Part shown: piece by piece, positions 5,872 to 61,492 of the stretch
Position numbering within the stretch: the first letter of the stretch is position 1
Layout of the letters: each line of letters begins with the position of its first letter
Assembly (NCBI GenBank): GCA_050613775.1
Contig: JBODTK010000014.1
Coordinates: 992,001 to 1,056,000 of the forward strand
Direction: 5' to 3'
DNA length: 64,000 bases
From: Neocallimastix sp. 'constans'
Taxonomy: Eukaryota
The notes under the pieces: generated by a model
The model's input: only the letters and a program-made list of their open reading frames with translations
What the model was told of the DNA's origin: nothing
Database searches by the model: none
Position numbers and translations under genes: made by a program

Positions 5872-6838
5872 TGTAAGAAATATTAATTATTTATTAATAA
5901 TATTTCTTAGTCTTTATAATTATTGATAATAATTATAAATTTATTTAAATTATAACTAATTCATACATTGAGAAATTATTATTAAATTTATTATAATTAT
6001 AATTATTCATACACTTATATAATATTAGAAATTTTATTTAAATAATTATTATATATACATTTATTAATATTATTAATTTTATTTAGTTATTCATTTAATT
6101 ATTAAATTAATGTAAACATTACTTTTGTTTATTTTTTAAATTGTACATTTAAAAGAATAATTAATAAGTTTCTGTATTTTTTATAATTCTGTATTCTAGT
6201 TTAAAGATAGTTTTATGTTAATAAGTTTAGATTAGATTGTAAAAATGATATTTAGAAAATAGAATAATTTAGATCATTCCGGTTATTATTTATTTTTCCT
6301 TTTATCTGATGATCTAAATTAAAATTTAGAAAATCGATATACTAAGGTTTTACCCAAATATAAAATAATATATTTGGTTTTACTTAATATATACGATGAT
6401 TGATATAAATAGAATATCGATCAAAAACTTATCTAGTTTTTTCTTCTAATCTTTTTCTAGATAAGATAATTTTAAGATTAGAAAGCCTTTTTTTATTTAA
6501 CCTTATTTCCATAAAAAAATATAAAAAGGGCTCTTGATTTCCCTTTAAGAAATCAAGAGTTATTATTATAAAAATATAGTTATAATAGTAACGATTTTAT
6601 ATTTTAAACTTTAATAAATTAATAAAATATTTTATTCAAAAAACATATTTTAAAAATTAAATTTATACAAATCTTTCTTCCTTCTTATTTTTCGTGTTAT
6701 TATTATAATTAATTTTATAATAAACTCCAATAATATTTAGGTAAAACTTCTTTTTTTTATTTTCTCAACTTAATGAATTAATCGTTAAGTTGAAGTTAAT
6801 AATTCTATTTTGAGTTAGTTCTTAATAGAATTATTACA
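5872..6838 (+). mobile_element. Solo LTR family F
   Basis: TGTAAGAA...TTATTACA; close reverse-complement copy at 35939-36914; conserved core ~6330-6570; TSD imperfect. Confidence 0.85.
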
Positions 6839-7750: not shown

Positions 7751-9518
7751 TGTGTAATAATTTCTATAAATTATAGAAATTATTATTTACAATTAATATT
7801 AACTAAATTATTAATATTAAATAAAATTAAAATAAAAATAAGAATTTAATACTTATCTTTAAAAGAGAGTTTATTATAAGAAAATATAATAGACTTTAAA
7901 TATGAAAAAAGAAATAGAATATGTTTTTTATAAGAGTTTTATTAATCTATTTGATTATTAAATATTTTATTATTATTTTTTTTTGATAAATTTTAAAATA
8001 ATTATTTTATATTGATTGAAATTTTAATGTCTTTTATTGTTATTATATTTTTCTTAAAATAATAACTCTTGATTTTCTAAAGAAGAAAATCAACAGCTAT
8101 TTATATTTTTACAAAAATAAATGTATTTTTCTAATCTTAACAATGATTCTTTCCAGAAAAAGATTAGAAGAAAAAACTGGAAAGATTTTTGATCAATAAT
8201 CTATACTTATTGATCATTGTGTTATTAAATAAAACCAATTATAATTAATCGGAAAAACTTTAATAACCGATTTTAATAACTAAAAGAATTAAAAAGAAAA
8301 AAGGATAAAAAAGAGAAGGGTAAAATAATACAGAAGTTATATTAAATACATTTTTTCATATAACAATTAATACATTAATTGGTATAATTATTTTTAAATG
8401 AAATAAAATTTTTTAAAGAATAATAATTATGAAATAATTATTAATTAATAAGAAATAGAAATAAATTATAAAAATTTATATCAATTTCTTACAATTTGAT
8501 AAATAACAAAATTATTAAATTAAAATAAATAATAAAGAACAAATTCTTGTCTAACTTAACCCATTCTAAAAAAAAATTAAATCCATATTAAAGAAAATTT
8601 AATTAAATAAAAAATAATTAAAATAAAATAATAATAAATTAATTAATCATTAATAATTTTAATTAAAAACTAGAATAAATTAATAAATAATATTTTTCTA
8701 AAACTACAAATAAACAAAATAATAAACAAATTTAATAAATTATAAATAACAAATAAACAAACTTATAAACATCTCAAAATTAAAATTAAATAGTTAAATA
8801 ATCTTTGAGTTACTTTTATTTAAAATAATGATTATTTTATTTATTTTATAACTCAACTTTTATAAACAAATTGTAATTAAAATAACATTTTAAAACTCAT
8901 TTTTATTAATATTTTAATTGTAAATATTGTTTAATTTAATAATAAATTATTCTTTATTTCTCTTTTATTAATTTTATTATTTTTAATGTAAATAGTTTAA
9001 AATCAAAGAAAAATATAAAAACATGTAAATATTTCTTATAAATATTCTTTATTATTAATTATTTAATAAATTATTATAGATATTTTATTAGTTTTAATAA
9101 TCAAAAAGTATGATTATTAATTATTTAATAAATTATTATATATATTTTATTAGTTTTTAATAATCAATTTTTATGATTATTAATTATTTTGATAAATTAT
9201 TATATATTTTATTAGTTATTAATAATCAATTTTATTATTAAAATTTAAAATAAATTAGTATAAATATTAAATATTTCATTTTTATTATTTTATTAGTTTT
9301 AACAATTATTTTATTAATTTAAACAAAATTAATTATTAAATAAATAAAGATTAATATTAAAATAAAAATAAAATTTTTTAATAAAATATTTTTGTGTTTA
9401 ATAATAAAACATTTTTATTTTTTTTAAATTTCTTAAATCTATTTTATTCAGTATTTATCCTCTTATTCACTTCTACAAAATTTAATTTTTGTAGATTAAG
9501 AATATCAGGTATAAATCA
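7751..9518 (+). mobile_element. Solo LTR family H, with F inserted after its first TG
   Basis: TG|ATAAATAA...GGTATAAATCA; TSD TATT (7747-7750, 9519-9522); relatives at 17258 and 34994. Confidence 0.8.
7753..8493 (-). mobile_element. Solo LTR family F
   Basis: TGTAA...TTACA; perfect 5-bp TSD ATTTG; conserved core ~8060-8275. Confidence 0.85.
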
Positions 9519-10504: not shown

Positions 10505-10538
10505 GCCTTAAACACATTATAAGATGAAAAGAAACCTT

Positions 10539-12269: not shown

Positions 12270-13922
12270 TGTAATAATCATACTAAGTACTATTACTTAA
12301 TATGATTATTAACTTCAACTTAACGACTAATTCATTAAGTTGAGATAATATATTTAAATGATTTTTTACCTAAGTCGAGCTTATTATAAACTTAATTATA
12401 ATAATAATACAGAACAGAAATAAAAGAATGTTTAGATAATATATTAAGTTGTGACTTAGATTAAAGGGTAAACTTGGTTGGAAGCCTTTAATATAATAAC
12501 CTTATGGATTTTATTTTATTTTATAAATTTATTTATTCAAATTATAAAAATATTATTTTATTATTAAACTTTTAATTAATTATATTTAATTTAATATATT
12601 TTATTATAAAGTTATCAGATTATTAGTAAATAATAATCTTACAAAGATTTAAAAAAAGAATATTTTTTAGTTCTTTTATATTTTTGAAAAACAATATAAA
12701 ATATTTAATAATATATTTTAATAAATACTAATTTAAAGATAACAATATAAAATATAATTTTAATATATAAAGTAACAAAATAATATATAAATAATATAAG
12801 ATAATAAAAATATATAAAATAATATAATTAATAAAAAACAATTTTTATAAATAATATTCAACTATATTAATTAATAAAAAAAGGTATAATATTAATTAAT
12901 ATGTAATACAATATTAATCAATTAATATATTAGGGATTCAATAATGTATAAAAGGGATAATATTAATTAATATGTAATACAATATTAATTAGGTTATGAA
13001 CGGTACAAGGATTTAAGGAGTACAAATTATATTTTTAATTAAATTATTATTTTTATAGTATTGAATATAAATTAATTTGTATCAAATCCTTGACATTCAA
13101 CTTAACGACTAATTCATTAAGTTGAGATAATATATTTAAATGATTTTTTACCTAAGTCGAACTTATTATAAACTTAATTATAATAATAACACAGAACAGA
13201 AATAAAAGAATGTTTAGATAATATTTAATTTGTAAAATGTTTTTTAATAGAAATTATTTTATTAATTATTTAAAGATTAAAATATAAATTATTATTATTA
13301 TAACTAGATTTTTTATAATAATAACCCTTGATTTCTTAAAAAGAACTCAAGAGCCTTATTTATATTTTTTTGTTAAAATAAGGTTAAATAAAAAAGGTTT
13401 TTCTAATCTTAATAAATTTCTTATCTAGGAAAAGATTAGACAGAAAAACCTAGATAAGATTTTTGATCGATATTCTATCCATATCGATCATCGTATCAAT
13501 TAGGTAAAACCAATTACTTTTAAGAAGAAATTGGAAAAAACCCTAATTAACCGATTCCTAATCTAATCTAATGATCGAAAATAAAAGAATAAAATAATTA
13601 AAAAATATTTCGATCTTAAAATAATAAATTTACAAAAAAGGAAAATAAAACATTGATAATATTAAATAAAATACAGAATACATTATTAAATACATAATAG
13701 AATACATAATATGTTTGTTTATAATTTAATTAAATAAATAAACTAAAACTAATAAATTTAATAATTAAATATATAATAAATTATAATTATTTATAAATGA
13801 ATAATTAATAATTAATTTAATAAAATTTTGTTATAATATAAATAATTTTATAATTATTATCAATAATTATAAAGACTAAGAAATAATAATTATTTATTAG
13901 TAAATAATTATTATTTCTTACA
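12270..13922 (-). mobile_element. Solo LTR family F containing insert Q and a ~134-bp duplication
   Basis: TGTAA...TTACA; TSD GTGCG/GTGTG; core ~13320-13560. Confidence 0.8.
12450..13095. mobile_element. Putative solo LTR Q
   Basis: TGTGAC...TTGACA between two copies of an F segment; single copy in window. Confidence 0.55.
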
Positions 13923-27343: not shown

Positions 27344-27689
27344 TTTGAGGGGGAGTGTTAAAGTATTAAATAATATAAATAAATAAACTTAATAATTTAG
27401 GTTTATAATTAAATAATAGAAAATATAAATCATAAATATTTATGTAAAAAACTAAACCTAAAATGTAAATTAACATTATTTATGTTAATACATAGTTAAA
27501 TGTAAATCATTAGATTTATCATGCGCATGTAAATAGTTTCTTTATTCTTGTTTATTCACGTGAAATAGTTATATAGTTTATATAAAAATAATTGTTTATT
27601 TTATAGACGAAAATTCGCGACTTTCGTCAATATAATATTTTATAATAAATAAATAAATGTATAAATTATTAATAACTAAATAAATTACT

Positions 27690-33197: not shown

Positions 33198-34011
33198 TGT
33201 AACAATTTTATTATAATTTCTTATAACAAAATTGTTATCTTCAATTTATTAATAATAATATTAATAAATTGAGAATTTTACCTTAAAAGTCGAGTTTATT
33301 ATAAGAGTTGAGGAGAACACGTTATTATAAAAGATATATATATATAAATTTTTTTTTTTTTTAAAAAAAGATTTTTAAATTTTATTATGTAATAATTATT
33401 TTATTGAGTTTTTTATTATTATATTTTTCTTATAATAATACCTCTTGATTTCTCAAAGAAAACTCAAGAGCCTTATTTATATTTTTTTATGAAAATAAGG
33501 TTAAATAAGAAAGGGTTTTCTAATCTTAACAAATCTTTTATCTAGGAAAAGATTAGATAGAAAAACATAGATAAGTTTTCGATTGATATTCTATCCATAT
33601 CGATCATCGCATTAATTAAGTAAAACCGATTACTCTTAAAAAGTAATTGGGAAAAATCTTAATTAACCGATTTTCCAATCTAATCTAATGATCGAAAATT
33701 AAAGAATAAAATAATAAAAGATATTTCGATCATATAATTTATCCTTATAAAAAAAATAAAATTAAATAGTTAATAAAATACAGAATACAATATAAAATAC
33801 AGAATACATTAGTTACAATAGAGAAATTAATATATTGTAAATATATTATTATAAATTAATTAAATAAATTTTGTTAAATTAATGAATATTTAAAATTAAA
33901 TTAGATAAATTTAATGAATAAATATTATATATAATTAAATAAAGTTATAGTTATAATAACATAACTAAGAAAATATAATTATTTGTTAGCAAATAATTAT
34001 AGATTCTTACA
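33198..34011 (-). mobile_element. Solo LTR family F
   Basis: TGTAA...TTACA; core ~33435-33675. Confidence 0.8.
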
Positions 34012-35938: not shown

Positions 35939-36914
35939 TGTAATAATTCTATTAAGAACTAACTCAAAACAGAATTATTAACTACAACTTAAGGAGTAAT
36001 TCATTAAGTTGAGAAAATAGAAAATAAAATAAAATAAATCTTTTACCTATAGAGTTTATTATAAATTAATTATAATAATAACACGAAAAACAAAAGAAGA
36101 ATTATTTGTATAAATTTGATTTTAAAAATATGTTTTTGAATAGAATATTTTATTAATTTATTAAAGTTAAAAAAATAAAATTGTTATTATTATAACTATG
36201 TTTTTTATAATAATAACTCTTGATTTCTTAAAGGGAAATCAAGAGCCTTATTTATATTTTTTTTTTTGGAAATAAGGTTAAATAAAAAAAAGATTTTCTA
36301 ATCTTAAAAAATATCTTATCTAGAAAAAGATTAGAAGAAAAAACTAGATAAGTTTTGATCGATATTCTATTAATATCGATCATCGTATATATTAAGTAAA
36401 ACCAAATATATTATTTTATATTTGGATAAAACCTTACAATATCGATTTTCTAAATTTTAATTTAGATCATCAAATAAAAGGAAAAATAAATACGGAATGA
36501 TCTAAAGTAATCTATTTTTTTTTCTAAATATCATTTTTAAAATCTAATCTAAACTTATTAACCTAAAACTATCCTTAAACTAAAATGTAGAATTATAAAG
36601 AATACAGAAACTTTTTAATTGTTCTTTTAAATGTACAATATAAAAAATAAATAAAACTAATGTTTACATTAACTTGATAATTAAATGAATAACTAAATAA
36701 AATTAATAATATTAATAAGTGTACATATAATAATTATTTATATAAATTTTCTAATATTATTTAAGTGTATGAATAATTATAATTATAATAATTTGATAAT
36801 AGTATCTCAATGTATGAATTAGTTATAATTTAAATAAATTTATAATTATTATTAATAATTATAAAGACTAAGAAATATTAATTATTTATTAATAAATTAT
36901 TATTATTTCTTACA
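35939..36914 (-). mobile_element. Solo LTR family F
   Basis: Reverse complement of 5872-6838; core ~36210-36450. Confidence 0.87.
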
Positions 36915-37718
36915 GTTAGGTACGGTGCCGAATTAAAAATATAAATTTTAATATAAATAGTAAAGTTTAATGGGAAATAATTATAAAATAATTATAAAAT
37001 AATTATATATAAATAATAATAATTAAATTTAAAATAATATAAAAAAAATATTAGTAAAGATAGTAAAAATAATATATAAATTGAACCAATAGGATTCAAT
37101 AAAAATAAATATATAAATATAAAAGAAAAATGATTTTTTTTAGACAGACGTAGTTTTAATTAGATTAGAATTAGGAATTTATAAATCTAAGTTAGGAATA
37201 CTTAGAAAATAATTATTTTAGTTAAATTTAAAATAAATACTTATTAAAGTTAAGGTTTAATTATTCAAAGAAATAGATTAAAATAACTAAGTATTTAAAA
37301 ATAATTAAAGTAAAAAAAATATATATATATATTTTTATAAAACAAAACGACAAATATTCTTTTATCTTTTTCTTATTATTTTTTTATTTAATCATTTAGT
37401 GTGATAATTATTATAATTCTTTTATTAGAATATACAATTTTATAATAAAACTTGCATTCACGAACCACCCGATACAATATAAAATTTATTCGTATCAAAT
37501 TTGGCTCCCAACGTGCGGGAGAATAAATGAAAACAAGATAAAATTATATGAAAATAATAACGGAGCATAATAATTATTAATTTTTTATTTATTATTATTA
37601 TTTTAGTTTGTAATTGATTTAGCATTATATTATATTATATTTTAATTATTATTATTATTATTTTGAATCCATATACATTTTTATATAAAAATATATTATT
37701 ATTAATTAAATTTTCAAA

Positions 37719-42576: not shown

Positions 42577-43325
42577 GTTTGATAAGAATGTACTAAATAA
42601 TGCATTCTTAATTAAATTTACGATTTATTTCTAATACATAATGTGTACATTATTATTTTTGTACTTTAATAAATTTTTTAAATTCAAAGATTAAAAATTA
42701 AATCAAAAATTATATTAAACTTTATATTTTTATATTATATCTTATATTAATAGTAATATTTTTATATATTTAAAACTTATTGTAAAGATATGATCAATAT
42801 CTTTAATACATTAATTAATTTATTTTGTACATTAAATTATTTAATGTAATTCACGTTTACAAAATAATGCTAATGCATTAAATTATGTAAAATATATTAA
42901 TTTATGAAATTAATTGATTTATGAAAATTAATAATAAATTTATATTTCATATAATATATAAATTTAAAAATATAAAATTAATTTTTAAATAACCTAAAAT
43001 TTAGTAATAAAATATATTAATAATTTTAGTTTAGTTTAATTTTAATTTAGTTTAATTTTAGTTTAGTTTAATTTTAGTTTAGTTTAATAATCATAAAAAT
43101 TAAATAGTAATATATAATTAATAGTATTAATAATAAAAGAATAATAAATAAATAATAAATAAGAACTTATTCAATTTGAGTCAAAACAAATTGAATAAAA
43201 AGCTTATTGAATTAGTTTTAGTTTTTTATAACTTTATTTAATTTTAGATTAATTTTTGTTTATTTTATATTGAATATATATTTAAATAAATAGAAATAGT
43301 ATATTATAATATAATTAAGAAAAAA

Positions 43326-43372
43326 TATAAATACATGTAAAATTATTCTATTAAAGAAAATGTAGTTGTTAT
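43326..43372 (+). promoter_or_regulatory. LTR TATA box and predicted transcription start / self-primer
   Basis: TATAAATA 43326-43333; GTAGTTGTTAT 43362-43372 is the exact complement of the PBS. Confidence 0.75.
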
Positions 43373-43537
43373 TAACTATTTTGCAGTTAATAACTAATAA
43401 AAAGAATTTTTATAATAAAGTGATTAATAAAAGAATTTTTTTTAAAAATAAATTTCATTTGAGTATTGTTATTGATAGTGTTGTTTTTTTTTTTTTTTTT
43501 TCGTAATTGTAATCTGCTCCATAAGGAACATTTTACA

Positions 43538-43548
43538 ATAACAACTAC
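43538..43548 (+). other. Self-priming PBS
   Basis: ATAACAACTAC abuts the LTR, lacks TGG and is complementary to 43362-43372. Confidence 0.85.
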
Positions 43549-43585
43549 CTTGTTATAAAAAGTGGAGCACGTTACGATCACGAGA

Positions 43586-43780
43586 TTAGAGAACTACCAG
43601 TTAGAGAACTACCAGTTAAAGAACTACCAGTTAAAGAACTACCAATTAGAGAACTACCAGTTAGAAAACTACCAGTTAGAGAATTACCAATTAGAGAACT
43701 ACCAGTTAGAAAACTACCAGTTAGAGAATTACCAATTAGAGAACTACCTATTAGAAAACTACCATTTGAAGAATTACTAA
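43586..43780 (+). repeat. 15-bp tandem repeat, ~13 units, in the chromovirus leader
   Basis: Unit TTAGAGAACTACCAG. Confidence 0.92.
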
Positions 43781-44051
43781 GAGAAGAAACAAGAAGTAAT
43801 AATAGAAGAAGTACTATTTGAAGAAGTACTAATTATAATTGCACCCATTAAGTCGCCGCCGTGATTACTAATTATATTGGAATATTTGAGATTATTTTTA
43901 TTTAAACTTATTATTATTATAATAATTTTGTTTACTCGACGGGCACCATTTCAAGCGGTTAGAGCCAAGTCGACTTTACATAATATTATAATAGTAAATT
44001 TAAATAAAAATAATAATCGTATATAAGAATTCTTTTATTTTTTTTTTCAAA

Positions 44052-45467
44052 GTGGAAGAACTTAATATTAGGCTAAGAAACCTCCACATTGAAGATATGG
44101 CGGAACGTGGACGAGAAGAAAAACGGAAGGTCAGTAAGCCACCGATTTTTAACGGTGAAAGAAAAGAACTTAAAGGGTTCCTCACAATTGTAAATATGAA
44201 CTTTGAGGATACCCCAGATGACTTTCCAGACGATAGATCAAAGGTTAGATTTATAACCTCATTCTTAAGAGGTGATCCTTTAAATTGGGCCTCAAATCTA
44301 TGGGATAATGAAGATCCCTTGATCGATAATTTAAATAATTTTAAGAGGGAACTTAAAATTAATTATGGGGATCCAGAAGTGGAGACAATTGTGGCTAATG
44401 GTAAATTAGATACCATTCGTCAGAAAAAATATGGGCAAGTGTTAGAATATATTAACCAGTTCAAAACAACTTGCCAAAATTCGGACTTCAACGAATCAGC
44501 CAAAATTTATATGTTTCTTAAAGGATTACATTACAAAATGAGGGAACAATTAGCCGTTGTTAACCCAAATCCAGATTCCCTTAACAAGTTGTATACCGAT
44601 GTAATTCAAATTGAAAATTTGTCAAAGCGAACTAATCTTGTTGAATTCTATTATAATCAGCAACGAGTTAGAAATTCGCAACAAAACAGTAACCACAACC
44701 AGAGAAATAGTAGTCGTCGTGATGATCCTATGGATGTTGATTTATTTAGGATCAAAAATGATAGATATAGAAGATACAACCAGAACTATAATCAAAATTT
44801 ATATGTTGAAAATAAAAGAGACTTTTCTGAAGAAAAGAAAAAAGGTCTTTGTTTTTTATGTAAACAACCAGGACACTTACAGTTTAATTGTCCTAACAGA
44901 AAAAGACCTTCTGGAGTTAAACACAAGAATAAAATTAGAGAAACAGATGAAAATCTTCCATCGGCAAAATTAAGAAGAATTAGAATGATCAAGGAATCCG
45001 ATGATGCTCAAAAAATTAGAGCTATTACTGATGAAGAAAATGCTATGAATAAAAGAAAGAACAATATAATTACTTTCTATATAAAAACAAATGATATTGA
45101 AGAAGTTCCAGTTAGGGTTCTTATCGACTCTGGCTCGGATTTGAATTTTATTCATCCTTCGTTCGTTAATAAAAACAAAATTAAATTGAATGAAGTTAAA
45201 AGATCTTTCAATGTTACTGGACTAGGATATGGTATCTCTACCATCTACGAACAAACTGAAAAGTGTATCTTACGATTCAAGAACCATTTTGAAGTTATTC
45301 AACTCTATGCACTTTATATTCCTGATGTAGATATCATTCTAGGTATTCCTTGGATTGAAAAGCATTGTCCAATGAATTATCATGATTCAAGAAAAATATC
45401 CTTTCCCTCTGGTTATTGCGCTAGGAACTGTAATAATGGTAAAAGAAAAAGAAAAAAACAAAAATAG
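44052..45467 (+). CDS. Chromovirus Gag plus protease (first ATG 44097)
   Basis: PPIFNG capsid motif, CFLCKQPGHLQFNC, VLIDSGS, ILGIPW. Confidence 0.9.
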   Translation: MEELNIRLRNLHIEDMAERGREEKRKVSKPPIFNGERKELKGFLTIVNMNFEDTPDDFPDDRSKVRFITSFLRGDPLNWASNLWDNEDPLIDNLNNFKRELKINYGDPEVETIVANGKLDTIRQKKYGQVLEYINQFKTTCQNSDFNESAKIYMFLKGLHYKMREQLAVVNPNPDSLNKLYTDVIQIENLSKRTNLVEFYYNQQRVRNSQQNSNHNQRNSSRRDDPMDVDLFRIKNDRYRRYNQNYNQNLYVENKRDFSEEKKKGLCFLCKQPGHLQFNCPNRKRPSGVKHKNKIRETDENLPSAKLRRIRMIKESDDAQKIRAITDEENAMNKRKNNIITFYIKTNDIEEVPVRVLIDSGSDLNFIHPSFVNKNKIKLNEVKRSFNVTGLGYGISTIYEQTEKCILRFKNHFEVIQLYALYIPDVDIILGIPWIEKHCPMNYHDSRKISFPSGYCARNCNNGKRKRKKQK

Positions 45468-47310
45468 AAGCAAGAAAGGTTCAAAGAAGTGTAAGATCGA
45501 TATCGAACCTGAAGAAGAAAATTCCTATGAACCAAGTACTCCATATAAGTGTAAACCCCTCTGGGATTCCGAATCAGAAAGCGAAGCTGAATACGTCCGT
45601 GGAAGAAAAGTTAGAACCATTAATGATAGTGATAGTGATAGTGATAGTGATAGTATTAATATTAGTGTTAAAGATAATGATTGTAGTAAAGAAAAAATTA
45701 ACTTTTGTAATTTTAGAGAACTTAGTACAATAGATAAAATCAAAAAATCATGTAATTTTATTAAATCATGTAAAAATGAAATTTTAAATAAAGAAAGTAA
45801 ATTGGTCGCCGAACTAACAAACTATTTTTTTTCTTATCAAAATTGTGTGTTAGACAATTTGTGTAACTGTCTGATTATTCAGAATTTAGATAATAATAAT
45901 ATTGTTAACGATAGTGATAATAAAATTTCTATTCCTCCTTGTTATCTCGATTATATTGAAGTTTTTGATGAAAAGAATTGTGATAAATTACCTCCCCATA
46001 GAGAATATGATTGTGAAATAAATTTAAAGGATAATTCAATTCTATTCTATGGTCCTATTTATCCTTTAACAGAAGCAGAAAGGGATGAATTGAAAAAGTA
46101 TATTAAAGAAAACTTAGCAAAAGGATTTATTAGAAAATCCAAATCACCAGCTAGTGCCCCTGTCTTATTTGTTAAAAAGAAAGATGGCACTTTGAGATTA
46201 TGTATTGATTACAGAAAATTAAATGAAATGACTATTAGAAATTCATATCCTTTACCATTAATAAGTGAATTAATTGACAGAGTTAAAGGTGATAAATATT
46301 TTACTAAGTTAGATCTTAAATCTGCATATAACTTAGTAAGAATAAAAGAAGGTGATGAGTATAAGACTGCTTTTAGAACTCGTTATGGACATTATGAATA
46401 TCTTGTTATGCCTTTTGGGTTAAAGAATGCACCTGCTACATTTCAACATTTTATAAATGATGTTCTTAGTGACTACTTAGATGATTTTGTTATCTCATAT
46501 ATCGACGATATTCTTATTTATTCAAATAACTTAGAAGAACATCATGAACATGTTAGAAAAGTGTTGAAAAAACTTTTAGATAATAATTTATATGTTAAAC
46601 TAGAAAAATGTGAATTCGATGTAACGGAAACCTCCTTCCTGGGCTACATCATATCTAAAGATGGTCTTAAACCTGATCCTGAAAAAATTAAAGCTATTTT
46701 AGATTGGCCTGTACCTACTAATGTCAAAGAAGTTCAGTCATTTATTGGACTTTGTAATTATTATAGAGTTTTCATTAAAGATTTTGCCAAAATAGCTTTA
46801 CCAATACATAAACTCACTCGTAAAAATGTACCTTTTATTTGGGGACCTGAGCAACAGAATGCTTTTGTTAAATTGAAAGAACTTTTCACATCTGCTCCAA
46901 TTTTAATTAATCCTGATAGTAATAAACCGTTTATCGTTGAAACTGATGCTAGTAACTTTGCAGTTGGAGCTGTACTTTCTCAAGAAGTTGATGGCAATCT
47001 CCATCCAGTTGCCTTTATTTCTTCGAGTTTGACTAAGTCTCAAAGAAACTACCCCATTTATGATAAGGAACTTCTCGCTATTAAAGTTGCTTTAGAGCAA
47101 TGGCGTCACTTTTTAGAGGGTGCTCGTCATCCCTTTACTATTTACACTGATCATAAAAATTTAACATTTCCTAGAAAACCGGAAATGCTTTCGCAACGTC
47201 AAATTAGATGGTATGAATTTTTATCTCGTTTTGATTTTAATATTGTCTATAGATCTGGGAAAAAATCGGGTAAACCTGATTTACTATCTAGGAGAAGTGA
47301 TCATTTTTAA
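45382..47310 (+). CDS. Chromovirus reverse transcriptase/RNase H (frameshifted segment of pol)
   Basis: LRLCIDYR, VMPFGLKNAP, YIDD, ETDAS, YTDHKNL. Confidence 0.92.
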   Translation: MIQEKYPFPLVIALGTVIMVKEKEKNKNRSKKGSKKCKIDIEPEEENSYEPSTPYKCKPLWDSESESEAEYVRGRKVRTINDSDSDSDSDSINISVKDNDCSKEKINFCNFRELSTIDKIKKSCNFIKSCKNEILNKESKLVAELTNYFFSYQNCVLDNLCNCLIIQNLDNNNIVNDSDNKISIPPCYLDYIEVFDEKNCDKLPPHREYDCEINLKDNSILFYGPIYPLTEAERDELKKYIKENLAKGFIRKSKSPASAPVLFVKKKDGTLRLCIDYRKLNEMTIRNSYPLPLISELIDRVKGDKYFTKLDLKSAYNLVRIKEGDEYKTAFRTRYGHYEYLVMPFGLKNAPATFQHFINDVLSDYLDDFVISYIDDILIYSNNLEEHHEHVRKVLKKLLDNNLYVKLEKCEFDVTETSFLGYIISKDGLKPDPEKIKAILDWPVPTNVKEVQSFIGLCNYYRVFIKDFAKIALPIHKLTRKNVPFIWGPEQQNAFVKLKELFTSAPILINPDSNKPFIVETDASNFAVGAVLSQEVDGNLHPVAFISSSLTKSQRNYPIYDKELLAIKVALEQWRHFLEGARHPFTIYTDHKNLTFPRKPEMLSQRQIRWYEFLSRFDFNIVYRSGKKSGKPDLLSRRSDHF

Positions 47311-48934
47311 TTTTGAATTTAATTCTTCTTGTCGTGTTATTAACTGTTTTACTATTAATAATGATACCCTTGCTAATTCTATTTTGAATGCTCTTGAGAA
47401 TGATGAATTCTATAATTCTGTTAAATCATCCTTATCTATTAATAATGCTGTTAACCCTAAAATTCAAAATATTAATAAATTTATGATTGATAAAGAAGGA
47501 TTTTTACTCTTTAATAATCTGATTTATGTTCCTAAATCGATTCGAACGAGAGTTCTTGAACTCCATCATGACTCTCCTACTGCTGGTCATTTTGGTGTTT
47601 CTAAGACTCAAGAATTACTTAGCCGCAATTTTTGGTGGCCTAATTTTTCTCTTGATGTTAAAAAATTTATTAAGTCTTGTGAAGTTTGCTGTAAATCAAA
47701 AATTCCTAGACACAAGCCATATGGACTTCTTTCACCCTTGTCCATTCCTAATAGAGCTTGGTCTGATATTTCTATGGATTTTATCGTTGAATTACCTAAG
47801 TCTAAAGATATGACTACAATTATGGTTGTTGTTGATCGTTTGACTAAAATGGCTCATTTTATTCCTTTTCGTTGTCTTCCTACTGCTTCAATTGCTGCTG
47901 ATGCTTTTATCTCGAATATTTTTAAATTACATGGTTTCCCTGATTCTATTATTTCTGATAGAGGATCGCAATTTACATCTGAATTTTGGAATCGCTTATG
48001 TAAACTTCTTGATATTACTCATTCTCTTTCTACCTCCAACCATCCGGAGACTGATGGTCAAACGGAGAGGGTGAACGGAATATTGGAACAATATCTTCGT
48101 TGTTTCATAAATGAAAGGCAAAATAATTGGGTCGATTTACTACCTTTCGCTGAATTCGCTTACAATAATACTTTACATCAATCTATAAATCAATCACCAT
48201 TCTTCGCAAACTATGGTTTTAATCCTAAATTTAGTCCTGAGATTCCATCCTCAGAAAGACCAAGTAGAGCTGAAAAAAGAATATTAGATATTAATAAAAA
48301 TATTGAATTTTTAAAAAGAAACTTAGAAGAAGCTAAGAAAACTTATAAAAAATACGCCGATTTGAAAAGACTTCCTTCCCCTAATTTCGAAGTCGGTAAA
48401 AAAGTTTGGTTACTTAAAGGATCTACTACTAAGAATGTTAAAAGAAAACTAGCCGATCAATTGATAGGTCCTTTTGAAATAATTGAAAAAGTTAGTCCCT
48501 TAGCGTACAAACTTAAACTACCTAATAATATGCATTGTCATCCAATTTTTCATGTTTCTTTACTTGAACCTTATTATGAGAATGAATTTGAAGATAGAAA
48601 TGTTAATAAACGAAAGAGTATAAATTTAACTACAAATAATTCCGATATGATTCCAGATAAAATAATTAATATGAGAACTTATAAAGGAAAGAATCGTTTT
48701 CTTATCTCTTGGAAAGGATCAAATGAAGACTCTTGGATAGATGAAGATCAAATTTTAGATAAACAATTAATTCAGGAATACTTTAGAAAAAATAAGAAAA
48801 ATAAAACAAGAACAAAGGATCAAGAATCTATTAAGAATGATGATCATGCCAATGATTTCATTGTAAGACATAAATATCAACCCTTTGTTATAGAACTTCC
48901 CTCAAGAAATGATTCTCGCAGGAGCTCGACTTAA
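47213..48934 (+). CDS. Chromovirus integrase plus chromodomain (frameshifted segment of pol)
   Basis: HHCC zinc finger, SMDF/SDRG/QTER catalytic motifs, GPF module, FLISWKG chromodomain. Confidence 0.92.
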   Translation: MNFYLVLILILSIDLGKNRVNLIYYLGEVIIFNFEFNSSCRVINCFTINNDTLANSILNALENDEFYNSVKSSLSINNAVNPKIQNINKFMIDKEGFLLFNNLIYVPKSIRTRVLELHHDSPTAGHFGVSKTQELLSRNFWWPNFSLDVKKFIKSCEVCCKSKIPRHKPYGLLSPLSIPNRAWSDISMDFIVELPKSKDMTTIMVVVDRLTKMAHFIPFRCLPTASIAADAFISNIFKLHGFPDSIISDRGSQFTSEFWNRLCKLLDITHSLSTSNHPETDGQTERVNGILEQYLRCFINERQNNWVDLLPFAEFAYNNTLHQSINQSPFFANYGFNPKFSPEIPSSERPSRAEKRILDINKNIEFLKRNLEEAKKTYKKYADLKRLPSPNFEVGKKVWLLKGSTTKNVKRKLADQLIGPFEIIEKVSPLAYKLKLPNNMHCHPIFHVSLLEPYYENEFEDRNVNKRKSINLTTNNSDMIPDKIINMRTYKGKNRFLISWKGSNEDSWIDEDQILDKQLIQEYFRKNKKNKTRTKDQESIKNDDHANDFIVRHKYQPFVIELPSRNDSRRSST

Positions 48935-50301
48935 AGGGCGAGATTGTAAAGATATGATCAATATCTTTAGTACATTAATTAATTTATTTTGTACATTAAA
49001 TTATTTAATGTAATTCACGTTTACAAAATAATGCTAATGCATTAAATTATGTAAAATATATTAATTTATGAAATTAATTGATTTATGAAAATTAATAATA
49101 AATTTATATTTCATATAATATATAAATTTAAAAATATAAAATTAATTTTTAAATAACCTAAAATTTAGTAATAAAATATATTAATAATTTTAGTTTAGTT
49201 TAATTTTAATTTAGTTTAATTTTAGTTTAGTTTAATTTTAGTTTAGTTTAATAATCATAAAAATTAAATAGTAATATATAATTAATAGTATTAATAATAA
49301 AAGAATAATAAATAAATAATAAATAAGAACTTATTCAATTTGAGTCAAAACAAATTGAATAAAAAGCTTATTGAATTAGTTTTAGTTTTTTATAACTTTA
49401 TTTAATTTTAGATTAATTTTTGTTTATTTTATATTGAATATATATTTAAATAAATAGAAATAGTATATTATAATATAATTAAGAAAAAATATAAATACAT
49501 GTAAAATTATTCTATTAAAGAAAATGTAGTTGTTATTAACTATTTTGCAGTTAATAACTAATAAAAAGAATTTTTATAATAAAGTGATTAATAAAAGAAT
49601 TTTTTTTAAAAATAAATTTCATTTGAGTATTGTTATTGATAGTGTTGTTTTTTTTTTTTTTTTTCGTAATTGTAATCTGCTCCATAAGGAACATTTTACA
49701 CTTATATTAGCAATATTAATAATAAATCTTATTTTTTTATTATTATATTAATAATGAAAATTTGTATTAATAATATTTTTATTTATTGATAATTAAAATT
49801 TATATATTATATTTTTAACTTTTATTATAAAATTTTATATCAAAATGTTTTATTTTATATTGAAAAATTTTTTATTTTATTAAAAACCTTTATATTAGAA
49901 TAGTATTTTTATTTGAATATTTTAACAGATTTTAATAATAGTTATAGCCAATTAAATAAATTCTTATTAGTAATATTTTAGATAGATTTTTCTTATAAAA
50001 AAAAATGTTTTATTAATATTATAAATGTATTTTATTTATATTGTTATAATTAAATTTTATATAATTGATTAAAAAATCAATTTAAATTTAATAGTTTTTA
50101 TAAAAAAAATAAAATGTAATAATATAAAATTTAGTGGCAAGAACAACTTTTATGCCCTAAAAAAAAAAAAAGTATAAATAGTTGTAAATTTTGCTACCAA
50201 TTTTTAGAAAATCATCATAAAAATAAAGAATTAATATATAAAAAAAATCTTTGTATTTATTATTGTTTTCTATTTAATTTCTCATAACCTTAACATGTTT
50301 G

Positions 50302-51000
50302 TGTAAGAATCTATAATTGTTTTTAACAACATAATTATATTTTCTTAGTTAAGTTATAATAATATAACTTTATTTAAATAATATTACTTTCGTACACTTA
50401 ATTATAATTAATACTTTATTTAATATTATATTAAATATTTATTTAATTTAGTATTAGAAAATTATTTAGATAAATAGTTTTTATATATTTAAATAATAAT
50501 AATAATTTATTTAATCATTCATTTAGATATCAAATTTATTAGTTTAGTAATTTAGTTAAATTAAACTATGTAACTAAAACGTTTCTCTATATTGTATAAT
50601 GTATTCTGTATTTTATAATGTATCTTATATTTTGTTTAATACATAATTTAATATTATTTATATATTGTTTTCCATATATGTAAATTCATATTTATTTGAT
50701 CGAAATATCTTTTATTCTTATTCTTTTATTTTCGATCATTAGATTAGATTAACCAATCGGTTAATTAAGGTTTTTCTAATTTCTTTATGGAAGTAATTGG
50801 TTTTACTTAATTAATACGATGATCGATATGGATAGAATATCGATCAAAAGCTTATCTAGGTTTTTCTATCTAATCTTTTCCTAGATAAGAGATTTGTTAA
50901 GATTAGATAACACTTTTTTAATTATCCTTATTTTTTCAAAAAGTATAAATAAAGTTCTTGAGTTCTCTTTGAGAAATCAAGAGTTATTATTAAATTTAAA
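50302..51000 (+). mobile_element. LTR family F, 3'-truncated; followed by diverged H-like sequence to ~51555
   Basis: TGTAAGAA start; core 50755-50990. Confidence 0.75.
50755..50909 (+). ncRNA. Candidate cis-acting structured RNA in LTR F (ENE-like loop, hairpin, pseudoknot); representative of 8 copies
   Basis: Compensatory base changes between copies; see findings. Confidence 0.7.
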
Positions 51001-51559
51001 ATAAAATAATTAATTTTTATAATTAGTTTTATAATAATTTTTATAATTAATTTTATAATTAAATAATAATTTTATAATAACAAAATTAATTAATTTAAAT
51101 AACAAAATATTTTTAATTATTTTTATAATATACAAATTTATTTATTTTATTATTAAATATTTATTTTATTATTAATATTATTACTTTTATTATTAATATT
51201 ATTACTTATTTTATTTAATTGTTCTTTTTATTTATAAATTATAAATAGTTTAATTTTAAAGAAAAATATAAATACTTGTAAATATTTCATGTAAATATTA
51301 TTATTATTATTATTATTAAATAATTAATTTTATAGTTTTAATAATCACTTTTAATTTTTATAATGTTTAATAAATTTTAATAAAGATTTAAAATTAATTA
51401 TTAGAAAACATGTGTTCTAATAAACCAAATTTTTAGTGTTATTTTAATAAAACATTTTTAATTCGTAAATAACTTATACAGTTATTATTTAAATAAATTG
51501 AAATTATCACTTTTTAATTCTATATTAAAATTATAATAATTTCTAAAATTTATCAAGAA

Positions 51560-52449: not shown

Positions 52450-55400
52450 AGAAATCATAATTATTCAATAATGAATAATTAATATTTCTTATAATTAATG
52501 AAAAATCATTAATAATTTATAATTATTTATAAAATAATAATTATTTTTTCAAAAAAAATATTTATTTAAATAATAATTAATATATTCATTGATTTTAACT
52601 TATAAATTTATTTAATAGTTATATTTTCATATATTGATCTGAATTTATTTACATATTATAATTTATAAATTTATATAAATAATATAAAATTTATTTACTT
52701 ATTATTATTGTTCATTTAAATAGAATTTTTACAAAAGATTATGTAAATTTGTATTTAATATGTGAAAAGTATAAATCTCTTTTTTTATTATATAAGAATA
52801 AAGAATAGTATGTGTACATAATTTTATACTTTTTTATGGTATTTATAGTAAACATAATATGTAGCTTTTTGTTACTATTGGTCACATATCTTACACTAAT
52901 ATATTAATTTATGTAACATTACTCCTTTAATTAATATAACTATCTTTATATTTTTGTTTCTAACATTCCCCCTCAAATCTAACTTTGGATGAAAGTTAGA
53001 GTTGAAGAGAAATATTGCAAATGTATTACTATATAAAATAATATTTTATTTTTAATAATAATAATAATACAAATAACATATTATAAAGTACATGAAAAAG
53101 ATTTATTTTATTTTTATTTGTAAACTAAAGAAATTATTTTTATATATTTTAGATTCTAACGTTTCCCCTTACTTTTAAATTGGATTTATGAAAATTTTTA
53201 TTTGATTTACAAATAACTCATTATTCTTTTTTATTTAAGATGTTTAGAATAAATATTATTTACAGTAATACATTTTTCATTATTTTTACTCTTTTTTTTT
53301 TTTAACGAATAATTATGAATATTTGGAGAATAATGAATAATTCAAATAATATATTTTAAATTATTTTATATAGATTATCTAAATGTAATCTTCCCTATTA
53401 TTGTTATTGATGTATATATTTACAGGTTTCGAGATTTAACAAAAATTAGATTAATAAATTAATAAATGGTAAATTAGATTTTTATAAATATATATATATT
53501 ATTAATAATATAATTTTTATGAAAAAATTTTAAATTGTCATTAAAATTGATGGATTGGATTAAATATTATTGATTAAAGTTTAGCAAAAATAATGAAATT
53601 TATATTATTGATTGAATTTAATTTAATTTTAATTTAATAAATCATTAATATTATTTTTAATAAATTGATATAATTGGACATTTTAAAATTATTATAAATT
53701 AAAATTTGAAATGTATTAAATAAAAATGTTATAATATATTAAAATTTTATTGAATATAAAGTTTTTTTTTTTTTTAAATTAATTTCTCTGATACTTTAAT
53801 TTTAATTTATTTCTTGAACATTATTTGTTAAAATTTTAGTGTAAAACTTTAATTATTAAAATTTCTATTATTATATTATCTGTGGATTGTTTCTAGTTTC
53901 AACGTTAATTATTTGTTAATTTTTCTTGATGGTATTTTATTGTATATTAAAAATTAAGTTAATTCATAATATATGTATATTATATCTTTTATATTATTTT
54001 GAATTGTATAATGTCAGAACGGATTTTGTGTGTGAAGATATATTATTTAATATTTAATAATTTTATAATTTTATTAATTATATATTTATTTATATTAAAA
54101 ATAAATTATATTTATATTATATATTAATGTTAATATTAATTTTTATAAATCATTTTTCTTTGTCTCTTTTTCAATTAGTTATTAATTTTTTTATTTTATG
54201 TGTTTCATTAATATTTAGTTAATAATAGTTATTATTAATTAACTTGAATAAACAGATTATTTGTAATTGATAATTCTTAGTCTTAATAACTTAAAATGAC
54301 TATTATTTTAAATTTAATTATTTAAAACTTCACTAGTTAGATTATTATTTTTATTTTTATTTTCTATTATTTTCAATTTAGTTAATCTAGTTGACAATCA
54401 TTTTATAGTTAATTATTTACATCTTAGATAAAATAATCAACAATTATTTTTATTTTTATTGTTAATCAACCTAGTGTAAAGAGACTTAGTCTGATTGGGA
54501 TACGTATACAAGGTTACACAGACTAAAGATTAGAATAACTAGGTTAGAAAAATTTTTGCTGTGTATTTTATTTGTTATTTGGTTAGGGTTCTTTTATTAT
54601 TAAAACAAGATAATTATTTTATGAATCAATAGATTATTTAATTAGAATATAATTTCATTTATTATTTATTGATATAAAAGTTTAATAATAAAAAGTACAA
54701 CACAATTTTTATAAAATAAAAAGTCTTAATTATATTTTCTATAATAAAATTTTCAATTAAAGATAAATTGTCAGAGAAAATTTGTCAATAATCTTTTTCA
54801 AAGATTAATTTAAAATAAAAACTAAACTATTTATATTTTTCCTAAACTATGTTTACATGGCTTATAAAATTTTTATATTTTATTTCTATTATTAATTCCT
54901 AATCTAAATAAATTTTTATTTTAATTATTTAATAATAAATTGGATCCCTTGTTTATTTTGTTTTAAGTTTTCTTTAATATTATCTAGATAATTATAAAAA
55001 TAAAATATTAATTATTTTGTAATTAATTTCCTAATCTAATAAGGGTATATTTTATATTTGATGTTATTTATATTTTAATAATTAAATTATAATAAAATAA
55101 TTATAAAAAATTCTAGTTAATTTTAACACCCTTAAACTTTAAATGTAAATATCTCGACATCTAGGAGGCTTTGAGACCTCGTATGATGACGAAATTATTT
55201 CTCTCTTCGCAACCTATCGGTTGCGCCTATTTTTAACCCTCCATCGCTATGGACTTTTAAAGTCAAGGCCCATTTTTTATTAAGTTTATTTATTTATTTT
55301 ATTAATTTAATATATTCGTTTTTAAACGAATATTTTACTTTAAAGTTTTAATTTATTATAATTTCTTATTTATTATTTTCTAATTGTGAAATTACTAATT

Positions 55401-56803
55401 TCAATAAAAGTAATTTCAAATTTTATTTTAATTTCATTTTTCTTATTTTTACACCTAGCTAGTTGACAGTTATTTTTATTTCATTATCAATTATTCACAA
55501 CTTAGCTAGTTGACATTTATTTTTTATTTTCATTTCTCAACTTAGAGATAGATTAGTTGACTATTATTTTATTTTAATATTTTCTTTTTATCTAATTATA
55601 TGTATATGTATTTATATCATTTTTTTATTTTTAGAAAATTAATAATAACTATGACCTATTACAATATAAGCATTTTATTTTAAATTTTATATCCTTAACA
55701 TTCTCACAATTGTTCTGTAATATTTTCTTATCGATAATGGTTATTACGTTTTGTTTCTATAACAAATTTTATAAAAATAATAAAAATATATTTTTATTAG
55801 TTTGATTATTAATGATAAAATGATTTTATATTTTATATATTTCAACTTAGTTTTATTGATAGCTCAACTGAAGAGTTGAGACTCTTAATCTGTGAAAAGT
55901 ATAAATCTCTTTTTTTATTATATAAGAATAAAGAATAGTATGTGTACATAATTTTATACTTTTTTATGGTATTTATAGTAAACATAATATGTGGCTTTTT
56001 ATTACTATTGGTCACATATCTTACACTAATATATTAATTTATATTACATTACTCCTTTAATTAATATAACTATAAATCTTTATATTTTTGTTTCTAACAT
56101 AATATTTTACCATAAAATTATTAGTTATTTTAATTAAAATGAATTATGTATTTTATAATGTATTATAAACTATAAATGTATCTAATATATCATATTATTT
56201 AATCTTTATTTTTTAAATAAAAAAAAAATCTTTTTTTTTATTAATTTCTATATTATCAATATTTAATATTTTAATAATTAATTAGAAAATCTGTAATTAA
56301 TGTTTTTCCTAACAAATAGATTTTCTTTAATTATACGATGATCAATATGATTAGAATATTGATCGAAAAACTATTTAGGTTTTTCTTCTAATCTTTTCCT
56401 AAATAGATTTTTTGTTAAAATTAGAAAATAAATTTATTTAACTGATTGATTTTTTTTAAAAAGTATAAATAGGACTCTTGAATTCTCTTTGAGAAATCAA
56501 GAGTTATTATTTTAAGAAAATATAATAAATAATAACTAACAAAATAAAATTTTATATTTATTAATCAAAAAAAAATATTTATTAATCATAAAAGTTTTTT
56601 TTTATTTTAAAAATATTTCCAACTACTAATCTATGGTTGCTGAATTATTGTTTATTATATTTACTTATAATAAACTCTACATAATTAAGTATAATTTTAA
56701 TTTTTTTTAATTTTTATTGACTCAATTAATATTATGAAAAAATAATATTAAAATTGTAGATAATAGTTATATTAATTAATTTAAGTTTAGTATAGCTATT
56801 ACA
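52450..56803 (+). mobile_element. Diverged LTR family F, host of the non-coding Copia; left end uncertain
   Basis: Core ~56290-56510; ends CTATTACA. Confidence 0.6.
52761..56099 (-). mobile_element. Non-autonomous Copia-type LTR element (no ORF of 60 aa or more)
   Basis: LTRs 52761-52965 and 55891-56099; TSD TAATA; PPT TGAGGGGGAA; PBS 55877-55890 as in Copia-1 and Copia-2. Confidence 0.92.
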
Positions 56804-57770: not shown

Positions 57771-58637
57771 TGTAAGAAATTAGACTTATTGTTATAAGTC
57801 TATATTTCTTAATCCTTAATAATTATAAAATAATTATTAAGTTTACTTAATTTTATAATTAATTAATTATTAATAATGTTACAAATTTTATTAAATTATA
57901 TATTAAAATTTATTAAATACATTTTGTATTTATTTTGTATGTATTTCTTTATTCGTTTCTGTATCTATTTTTGCATTTTTCTTAATTTTATTTATAAGTT
58001 AATTCGGTTAAATTGTTATATTTTTCTTAATTTTATTTAAAAGTTAATTCGGTTAAATTGTTAAAGTGTGAATTAATTTAACCGTTTAACTTACGTAATT
58101 TAGAACATCGGTTATTAAGGTTTTTCCATAAAAGTGGTTATACTTAATAATACGATAAACAATAAGTATAGATTATTGAAATCTTTCTAGGTTTTTCTAC
58201 TAATCTTTTCCTAGAAAGTATTTTGTTAAGATTAGAAAATTCTTTATTTCTTTATTTTAAAATATAAAAAGGTTTCTTGAGTTTCCTTTCAAAAATCAAG
58301 AGTTATTATTATAAGAAATTGTAATAATAATAAAAAATACTCATAATTTTTTTAATAGAATATTTAAATTTCAAATAAAAAATTTATAATAATTTCTAAA
58401 TAAGATTTATGATATAAATCTAAAATATTTAATAATAAAACATATTAATAGTTATGATAAAACATATTTTTATTACTCCCCTCACACTTAGTGTTTTAAG
58501 TTTATTATAGTTTCTTATAATAAACTCTCTTTTATAAGTTAAGTATTTAAACTTTATTTTATTTTGTTTTAATTAATATTAATAGTTAATTAATATTAAT
58601 AGATAATAATTTCTATATTTTTGTAGAAATTGTTACA
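57771..58637 (+). mobile_element. Solo LTR family F
   Basis: TGTAA...TTACA; perfect TSD GCATC; core ~58105-58310. Confidence 0.88.
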
Positions 58638-59148: not shown

Positions 59149-59392
59149 TGTAAGAATATATTAATTTATTAACATGTAAAAAATATATTAATTTATTCAA
59201 ATTAATATATTGAAAAATAATGTAAACAAATTTGTTGTAATGTATTAATTACTTAAAAATATTATTTATATTTTATTATTTTAATTAGTTGATAATTTAT
59301 AAGATTTTAGTAAAATCGGTTAATTAAATTTTTTCCCAATATTATTATGATTGAGTTTTTATTAATTAATACGATGATTAATATATTAGAAT
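59149..59392 (+). mobile_element. LTR family F 5' fragment
   Basis: TGTAAGAA start and degenerate AATCGGTTAATTAA...TACGATGAT core. Confidence 0.6.
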
Positions 59393-61492
59393 ATAATGAA
59401 ATAGTTTTAGTTATTTTAATTATAATTAAATATATATAGTTGATATTATTTATTATATTCATACTTATTATATAATTATATTCTTATATATTTAACTTTA
59501 TTATTCTTATTTTCATTTTTAAGAATTATATAGTTATATTTATTATATTTATTATTTTTAATATATATTAATTATATATTATATTATAATCCGATATATT
59601 ATATTTTAAATGTATATTTATTATTATTAATATTTGTTAAATTATTATAAAGATTTCTAATAACTACTCTTCTTTATAGTAATATGGAGAAGATCCTTGG
59701 GGGTTTATAAATTAAAATATAATAATAAAGGTTAATTAAATATAACGATACTATTAAAAATTAGTAGCACATAAAAGTCCCCATATCAAAAATTGGTGGA
59801 GATATCGGGGATGTGAAATAGTCTTGTTATATTGTTTTAAAAATTAAAGGATCAATTATACATATTAAATATTATATTTTATTGTTTTTGTTTATAATTG
59901 GTTATTGAGCTGAAATTGGTTATAATTAATAATAATAAATCATTAAAATAACACAAAACTAATTTAAATTATTAAAAAGGATATATAATTAGAGACAACT
60001 TGGAATTCGGACCAGGATAAAAACGAACAAGTCTTTAATTTTCCTTTATATTAAAATAAGATTAGTTATAATTGTTTAGTAATAATAATATTTTAGTTGA
60101 ATAGTAATAAAAATAAAATAATAAAAAATAAATATTTTGATATAGAATAAAAAAAATAATATAATTATTCTATATAGAGGATAATAATTATTTGTATATA
60201 ATATTAATAGAGTTAGCAATAACAAAATAAAAGAGTAGAGTAATAAATTATTATACAATAAAATTTATAAAAAAAAAATTAAAATAAAATAAGAGATTAG
60301 TTATATAAAAAAAAATACATATTTTCATATTTAATAATAACTAGGAATAGGATATAAAATAAAATAAAATAAATATAAAAAGTGTTATTGGTATTTATTA
60401 TTAATTATTAAACCAAAATGCAATAACGAATTAAAAAAATAAAAAAAATATTTAATTTTCTTTTATGAGAAGTAGTAGTAGTGAACATAATAGTAGCATT
60501 AATAGTAGTATTAACAACACCATGTCAGGTGTAGATACAAAGACTCTTCTAAGGATAGGTGGTCCTCGCAGAGACGCGAAGATCTGGCAGTTCCGAATCG
60601 AACAATGGTTTAAAAGAGAAGGGATAACTAACGACGAAGTTTAGTTATATTATCTCTTCTGCAGAAGATGATTTGGTACTAAAAATGAAGGAAAATGAAT
60701 TAGGCAAAACTCCCACAATAGATGAATGTGCTGAAGTTATTAAAAAGAAATATTTGCGAGAGAATAAAAAGGAAGATAAACTCAGACAGTTCAAACGTAT
60801 GACTATAGAGCCAAGAGAAACTTTCTACGATTTTGACTCAAGATATTTGAATTTATATGATTTATTAGAAAATGAAGACGAGCTTCAATTTCAGTCATTG
60901 ACTATGAGAATGCTCTTAGACCAAGGCAACAAATATATGAGAAAATAGCAATGGAAGAATACAAATCATTAGAGGATGCAGGTAGTCAAGCTGAAAAATA
61001 TGAAAACATTCTACAAGAATCTAATTTTTATAATAATAACAGTAATAAAAAGGAAAGAATGTATTCCAATAATTATAACAGAAATAATTATCATAATTCA
61101 TTCTCTAATAATAATGGTTATAATTATAACAATTCTTGGAATAGAACTAGTGGTAGAAACTCTAGAAACTCTAGGAATACTCCCACGAATATACCTCCCA
61201 ATCCCATTCATAGAAATAATCATAATATGCTAAATAATTTTAATAATAATGGAATTAATAATCCATATAATATAAATATTAATTATTTAAATAATAGAAA
61301 CAATAATAATTATAAAATTAACAACAATCAAATACCTAATAATGATGGAATGGATGACTTGATAAATAGAATGCAGAGCTTACAAATTAAAACATGCTAT
61401 TTCTGTAACCAACCTGGCCATCTTATTAAGGATTATGCTGAATTAGCCAAAATTAAGCAAGATCCAAATTATATAAATTATTTTAATTCACA

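Follow-up and report, generated by a model that had tools for sequence, protein, structure and literature searches.

A conserved block with a predicted pseudoknot next to an ENE-type motif in a solo-LTR family: a candidate triple-helical guard of RNA 3' ends

A short block at positions 50820-50909 recurs in a family of solo LTRs within the window, which is the whole 64-kb stretch of DNA analysed in this study, and raises the question of what structure and function it might have in RNA. A preliminary description, in which the bases at 50820-50909 were written exactly as they stand, presented the block as a covarying, telomerase-like H-type pseudoknot next to an ENE, and possibly as a second poly(A)-clamping triple helix. 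The Evade ENE binds the poly(A) tail and blocks deadenylation (PMC12501189), and ENEs have been found in the LTRs of plant and fungal elements (PMC13541005). In reviews, the ENEs of transposons take the form of one internal loop or of two, and some of these ENEs are located within LTRs (PMC13541005, PMC7583470). Solved natural major-groove RNA triplexes are few (PMC7583470 table 1), and two reviews treat transposon triplexes only as poly(A)-binding ENEs (PMC7583470, PMC13541005). In the literature covered, which was mostly non-subscription, no report of a triplex knot in an LTR was found; the Tycowski 2016 set, which lay outside this coverage, may list the element. Our analysis indicates that the conserved element is real and that, if the predicted fold holds, it would be a triple-helix RNA of new design.

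The LTR family and its cassette

The window has a GC content of 10-30% per 2 kb and consists largely of LTR retrotransposons and solo LTRs, with ORFs that include copia and gypsy/chromovirus types. Eight full copies of a cassette were identified in the window using BLAST and a covariance model, the latter being used solely for listing copies and recovering all eight; every copy statistic reported here rests on these eight full sequences from one window. All cassette-bearing LTR copies in the window are solo, measure approximately 740-980 bp, start with TGTAAGAA (TGTAAG...) and end with TTACA. Perfect 5-bp target duplications flank two of them, namely, 57771-58637 on the plus strand (GCATC/GCATC) and 7753-8493 on the minus strand (CAAAT/CAAAT); the duplication of a third, 12270-13922, matches at 4/5 positions, and the remaining copies are scrambled or truncated. 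The family thus shows the TG...CA termini and 5-bp target duplication that characterise the LTR of an LTR retrotransposon. The order within the cassette is ENE-type motif, hairpin B, pseudoknot (50851-50907), TATAAAWA and hairpin C (Table 1).

Table 1. Positions of the reported LTR copy, its structural features and the sister cassettes in the window
Feature	Position	Strand	Remarks
Solo-LTR copy bearing the reported block	50302..51090	+	Starts TGTAAGAA; 3' end lost, passes into another repeat family near 51030-51090
Hairpin A, GAUCGAAA/UUUCGAUC	50698..50737	+	Such a form in 3/8 copies
Upstream AGATTAGA	50741..50748	+	Second complement of stem-2 5' strand; in 5/8 LTRs
ENE-type motif	50756..50820	+	Long lower stem; U-rich internal loop 50770-75 / 50801-05; upper stem C-G-closed in 8/8
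Hairpin B	50821..50845	+	9 bp; UAGA in loop in 8/8; 2/9 pairs compensatory
Predicted pseudoknot stem 1, 5' strand	50851..50860	+	Partner 50880-50889; two-sided change in 5/10 pairs
Loop 1, UUUUUCU(A)	50861..50868	+	99% pairwise identity; U50864-U50867 = predicted Hoogsteen third strand
Stem 2, 5' strand UCUAAUCUU, and loop 2, UU	50869..50879	+	
Stem 1, 3' strand	50880..50889	+	
Loop 3	50890..50898	+	Variable save final UU (8/8), opposite loop-1 and loop-2 Us
Stem 2, 3' strand AAGAUUAGA	50899..50907	+	AAGA = predicted central purine strand of triplex
Conserved TATAAAWA	50944..50951	+	In 8/8 LTRs, 62-78 nt past stem-2 5' strand
Hairpin C	50955..50983	+	
Sister cassette (ENE to hairpin C)	6326..6566	+	
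Sister cassette (ENE to hairpin C)	8059..8278	-	
Sister cassette (ENE to hairpin C)	13318..13562	-	
Sister cassette (ENE to hairpin C)	33435..33678	-	
Sister cassette (ENE to hairpin C)	36210..36453	-	
Sister cassette (ENE to hairpin C)	56282..56510	+	
Sister cassette (ENE to hairpin C)	58100..58309	+	

Although TATAAAWA occurs often by itself (1.6 per kb per strand), its position is fixed in the cassette LTRs, approximately 35 nt downstream of the block, and it is likely the LTR TATA box. Since this box follows the block in all eight LTRs, the block likely lies in U3, near the 3' end of the transcript. The parent element, its start site and its poly(A) site were not found in the window or in the collections scanned.

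The ENE-type motif contains a U-rich internal loop between two G-C-closed stems in the eight copies, and 92.5% of the cells of its lower stem are paired, with compensatory change in 4/14 pairs. By form it fits a single-domain ENE, and its own poly(A) binding and RNA stabilisation are putative. The knot itself departs from the ENE form, as it has no upper hairpin stem and four of its slots match genomic AAGA. The Rfam search suggested in the preliminary description was performed with Rfam 15, which covers ribozymes, riboswitches, telomerase and MALAT1, and returned 0 matches at gathering score in the 64 kb. The earlier proposal of an RNA domain of a retroelement, adjacent to an ENE, is supported: the block is located in solo LTRs, directly after an ENE-type loop with covarying stems, and belongs to no Rfam family found by this search. 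Upstream of the motif, AGATTAGA could be either an alternative partner of the stem-2 5' strand or a DNA motif. A kissing contact between the UAGA loop of hairpin B and UCUA is possible, with only 4 bp in most copies.

Several further features of the family were observed. A ninth, partial copy at approximately 59310-59394 has no pseudoknot; the surrounding LTR-like stretch 59149-59790 begins as the cassette LTR family, continues with a degenerate ENE and hairpin B and then with sequence common to 31375-31779, and is likely a chimera lacking the pseudoknot. A 139-bp direct repeat (97%), 12314-12452 / 13096-13233, bounds an insert of approximately 640 bp within the 13k LTR copy. In an uncontrolled tally, most ends of the cassette LTRs lie 1-6 nt from the apparent TG../..CA end of another solo-LTR family, at window positions 5872, 6838, 7753, 8493, 12270, 33198, 34011, 35939, 56803, 57771, 58637 and 59149; examples are CCGTATCA-ATC-TGTAAG at 59149 and TTACA-AAC-TGATACGG at 33198. 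Such end-to-end chains suggest that insertion was targeted to LTR termini. A hammerhead-like CUGAUGA at approximately 6307 was rejected, being an unconserved hairpin arm.

Covariation of the stems and the predicted triple helix

Across 60 predicted pairs and eight copies, 92.6% of the cells pair, and 15 pairs show two-sided change against a shuffled mean of 8.0 (0/500 shuffles as high) and 1-6 in slid controls, a count that is inflated by the relatedness of the copies, as the tool itself warns. Two-sided change was found in 4/14 pairs of the ENE lower stem, 2/6 of the ENE upper stem, 2/9 of hairpin B, 5/10 of stem 1, 2/12 of hairpin C and 0/9 of stem 2. Two of the stem-1 changes are clean substitutions, from C-G to U-A at 56k and from U-A to C-G at 8k, and the others may be symmetric one-pair deletions instead. 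The stem-1 variants previously quoted at 6428, ~8150-8184, 56371 and 58183, together with those of the preceding hairpin, were all found again. The description of a covarying pseudoknot holds for stem 1 and not for stem 2. The variation reported for stem 2 comes down to a single end pair that goes with a 1-nt indel. The U runs, which had been called constant, are so overall; the exception is the inner G-C pair of stem 1, which is replaced by U.U in 3/8 copies. These copies fall in two supported clades, and both U runs lengthen together. At predicted pairs, G.U and A.C cells are about equally frequent (14 versus 13 in eight copies), so that no strand bias favours RNA. Template-switch repair can also make inverted repeats co-vary.

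Seven pairs of stem 2 never vary and two are each broken in one copy, with no compensatory change in the eight copies. Stem 2 is thus conserved and complementary; as its core hardly varies, covariation lends this crossing stem no support. The stem-2 duplex has an energy of -7 to -10 kcal/mol in 7/8 copies, and an 8-bp complement without mismatch would fall within 3-15 nt of stem 1 with a rough chance of 0.003 at LTR base composition. In contigs of sequencing runs, the terminal pair A50868-U50908 is mostly U-A in run X15 and mostly an A.A mismatch in X1, X5 and X7. A stem-2 variant, A50873G, occurs just outside the triplex at loose contig ends (15 contigs in X1 and 4 in X15); it would give G.U (or G-C), the partner base being unseen in these contigs. 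Separate contig mapping on the knot alone yielded no substitutions, though the same places showed some in the wider mapping.

The major-groove triple helix that had been proposed is supported at the sequence level, since the invariant UUCU of loop 1 is an exact parallel Hoogsteen match of the stem-2 AAGA, giving U.A-U, U.A-U, C.G-C and U.A-U. With U64-U65-C66-U67 placed on A99-A100-G101-A102, 31/32 triples are canonical, compared with 13-25 in four other registers. This register accounts for the frozen C and U of the loop, which plain pairing does not. Invariant columns make up 27/28 of loop 1, stem 2 and the junction and 74/172 of the rest of the cassette, a contrast with a Fisher p of 3e-8 among copies that are not independent. 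A sequence-free descriptor comprising stem 1, stem 2 and four Hoogsteen-matched triples retrieved 6/8 copies and one low-complexity match, and the same descriptor gave 1 match in 10 locally shuffled windows; a looser fold descriptor retrieved all eight copies and three other places, against 0-2 matches per shuffle in four shuffles. Only 0-1 nt is left past the last triple to span the end of the 9-bp stem 2, and with so tight a span the distal stem-2 pair probably frays. Below the triplex, U62-U63 of loop 1 and U78-U79 of loop 2 face U97-U98 in 8/8 copies, where As would extend the helix; these two slots, with invariant U for A, might take the last As of a poly(A) tail.

Possible functions of the block

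The reading that we favour, tentatively and at slightly under even probability, is that the LTR block folds into an H-type pseudoknot with an intramolecular pyrimidine-motif triplex and, together with the ENE, forms a second guard of the RNA 3' end. From its U3 position before the TATA box, the block would enter RNA chiefly through transcription of the 3' LTR and would precede the poly(A) site by a few hundred nucleotides. Loop-1 bases U64-U65-C66-U67 would then occupy the stem-2 major groove, while the poly(A) tail would be bound by the ENE and lose its As more slowly, and the triple-helical knot would stall 3'-to-5' exonucleases, as the MALAT1 triplex does. The U-only junction slots of the knot could additionally hold a few tail As. 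The points against such a guard include the tight span at the end of stem 2 and the consideration that an RNA trimmed to the U3 knot would lack R and be usable only as mRNA. If folding as predicted, the 57-nt self-contained triplex knot with its ENE would represent a new design of 3'-end protection and a compact RNA-stabilising part.

The knot would work like the lower MALAT1 triplex and the telomerase knots and is a member of neither, nor a strict ENE. The first MALAT1 triplex comprises five U-A-U followed by C-G-C (PMC4836648). The MALAT1/MEN-beta ENE+A shares with the knot a lower stem, five U then C, an opposite CUUUU and a cis-encoded purine strand giving U.A-U and C.G-C (PMC4836648). Unlike MALAT1, the knot has no upper hairpin stem, its purine strand runs on into a 9-bp pseudoknot stem, the G follows just two As, and U stands in two of the slots; moreover, the search for a tRNA-like cleavage element was confined to Rfam, without a match, and the position of the knot near the 3' end is putative.

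Its loop sequence is presumably nearly identical to the loop of human telomerase RNA. The resemblance to telomerase in the preliminary description stands as one of fold, which the lower MALAT1 triplex and the SAM-II/V riboswitches also show (PMC7583470). Telomerase pseudoknots are likewise of the H type, and their U-rich loop 1 occupies the stem-2 major groove (PMC7583470); that of K. lactis contains five U-A-U and one C-G-C (PMC7583470 table 1), whereas the knot is predicted with three U.A-U and one C.G-C. In layout, the lower MALAT1 triplex and K. lactis telomerase RNA are at least as close to the knot as human telomerase RNA is. In contrast to telomerase RNA, the knot is part of a high-copy LTR in which no template was found, its loop 2 has 2 nt, and its loop 3 is U-rich rather than A-rich. 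Against transposon ENEs and double ENEs (Evade, TWIFB1 and the Tycowski 2016 set), the motif at 50756-50820 fits the single-domain form, and plant and fungal elements also carry ENEs within their LTRs (PMC13541005). Where a double ENE has two internal loops on one hairpin, the cassette instead has its second domain further downstream, as a pseudoknot of its own that would be filled in cis. SAM-II and SAM-V share the H-type fold, U-A-U triples and a U-U slot for an outside adenine (PMC7583470), whereas the knot has no Rfam match, is found in a eukaryotic LTR and lacks an expression platform. The close relatives of TERT are non-LTR and Penelope-like RTs, not LTR RTs (PMC4993307). A telomerase/MALAT1 fold used by an LTR retroelement, if true, would bear on a retroelement origin of telomerase RNA without proving it.

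The poly(A)-clamping once suggested for the block survives in part, as AAGA would occupy four triple slots in cis and leave at most 2-3 free. A more specific, doubtful version of the guard is a new poly(A) end-cap, in which four triples would be pre-built in cis with 2-3 U-lined slots open, the loop-3 UU would be flipped out, and the last tail As would stack on A50899 in a nicked triplex burying the 3'-OH, the upstream ENE holding the remaining tail. If true, this would mean that a telomerase-type triplex knot arose in retrotransposon RNA.

Among the rival readings, it is unlikely that the same fold serves another task, as a protein-binding signal on genomic RNA for packaging, reverse-transcriptase or strand-transfer docking, export or translation enhancement. 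Loop 1, stem 2 and the UU junction are fixed in their sequence and not just in their pairing, which such a signal would explain but the triples alone can explain too; the UAGA loop of hairpin B present in 8/8 copies also fits, and the MALAT1 triplex raises reporter translation as well (PMC7583470). The block adjoins an ENE-type motif, however, and the ENE is a known stability element.

The main rival to the guard, likewise unlikely in our estimate, is that stem 2 is no RNA helix, and that TCTAATCT and AGATTAGA are inverted promoter-factor DNA sites upstream of the TATA box, with only stem 1 and the ENE folding. Several points against the guard count for these sites: 0/9 stem-2 pairs are compensatory, a G.U bias is absent, 5/8 LTRs have a third AGATTAGA upstream, its distance taking two values, and the TATA box follows some 35 nt on, as could be the case for a DNA site. 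The base-for-base UUCU/AAGA match, the fixed spacing that fits a knot and the A-to-G variant inside the motif would be left unexplained by promoter sites, and the GATAAG sites of stem 1 are gone in 3/8 copies in which pairing is retained.

Improbable to the same degree is the version in the preliminary description, that is, stem 1 and the two U runs as a second ENE-like clamp on the poly(A) tail, with AAGA as a cap or a competing closed state. Five Us do face four (six face five in 3/8 copies) above a G-C-closed stem, and transposons commonly carry double-domain ENEs (PMC7583470, PMC13541005). Nevertheless, an upper stem is absent unless stem 2 forms, and the invariant C66/C75 require the genomic G101, as poly(A) cannot provide a G. 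Finally, it is very improbable that the block is a self-cleaving ribozyme, an aptamer for a small ligand or a fragment captured from telomerase RNA: SAM-II/V riboswitches do take an adenine in the U-U slot of such a triplex (PMC7583470) and retrotransposon RNA has been proposed as an ancestor of telomerase RNA (PMC4993307), but no Rfam family reached gathering score in the window, a telomerase RNA would be expected at a low-copy locus, unlike these eight copies within 64 kb at very high depth, and a TTAGGG-type motif, which may not be the telomere repeat of the host, is absent from 7/8 LTRs.

Homologue searches, abundance and neighbouring elements

In two copies examined with E values as high as 10, the knot had no Rfam match, and two LTR stretches gave one chance match each (E 5.3 and E 9.6), outside the knot. 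In pattern scans for the knot, all 46 matches in metagenomes and all 50 loci in viral contigs were attributable to chance, the best stem 1 of the latter having at most 7 bp without a U-rich loop, and prokaryote genomes yielded 0 matches. Alignment of the chromovirus RT gathered 157 loci, of which the best 87 (L097-L183, 505,727 bases) were scanned and 70 distant viral RTs left out; no knot was found in these 87 related retrotransposon loci and their LTR matches were only of low complexity, a weak negative as most of the loci lack whole LTRs.

The sequencing runs that contain the stretch are mostly feces metagenomes, together with three coded organisms. Summed contig depth in four runs is highest, at approximately 140,000-330,000, over the knot, hairpin B and the TATA/hairpin C region, and is at least several-fold lower on the linkers; this profile is that of a highly abundant family whose modules are conserved, and it gives no copy number. 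Three contigs of metatranscriptome X17 span the knot, and contigs of this kind show neither transcription nor strand.

The named relatives of the chromovirus RT in the window include two 'Orpsp1_1' proteins (61-64%), a label that we take to denote an anaerobic gut fungus, and the closest others reach 80-92%. With the mostly fecal origin of the runs, this makes a host in the Neocallimastigomycota likely. AT-rich chromovirus-type contigs (L097-L101 and L103-L105), up to 92% identical to the window RT, were observed inside bacterial/archaeal MAGs and are likely eukaryotic contamination of the MAG bins. Two proteins of the window had no exact match in the protein collection. PBS-like TGG... sequences follow TGATA...TATCA LTR ends at approximately 10480-10505, 37500-37525 and 59790-59812; two presumably resemble the 3' complement of tRNA-Ala and one that of tRNA-Lys. 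A GC-richer island at 55160-55270 (…GGAGGCTTTGAGACCTCGTATGATGACGAAA…GCAACCTATCGGTTGCG…) stands amid AT-rich DNA and has no Rfam match at gathering score. A copia element at 21519-27695 on the plus strand, with 340-bp LTRs that are 100% identical and a single 1765-aa ORF, is apparently intact and very young. A young chromovirus-type gypsy element occupies 42779-49700 on the plus strand, with LTRs 99.7% identical and gag-pol in three overlapping frames, and its leader carries a tandem repeat of the AGAACTACCAGTTAG type at approximately 43590-43770.
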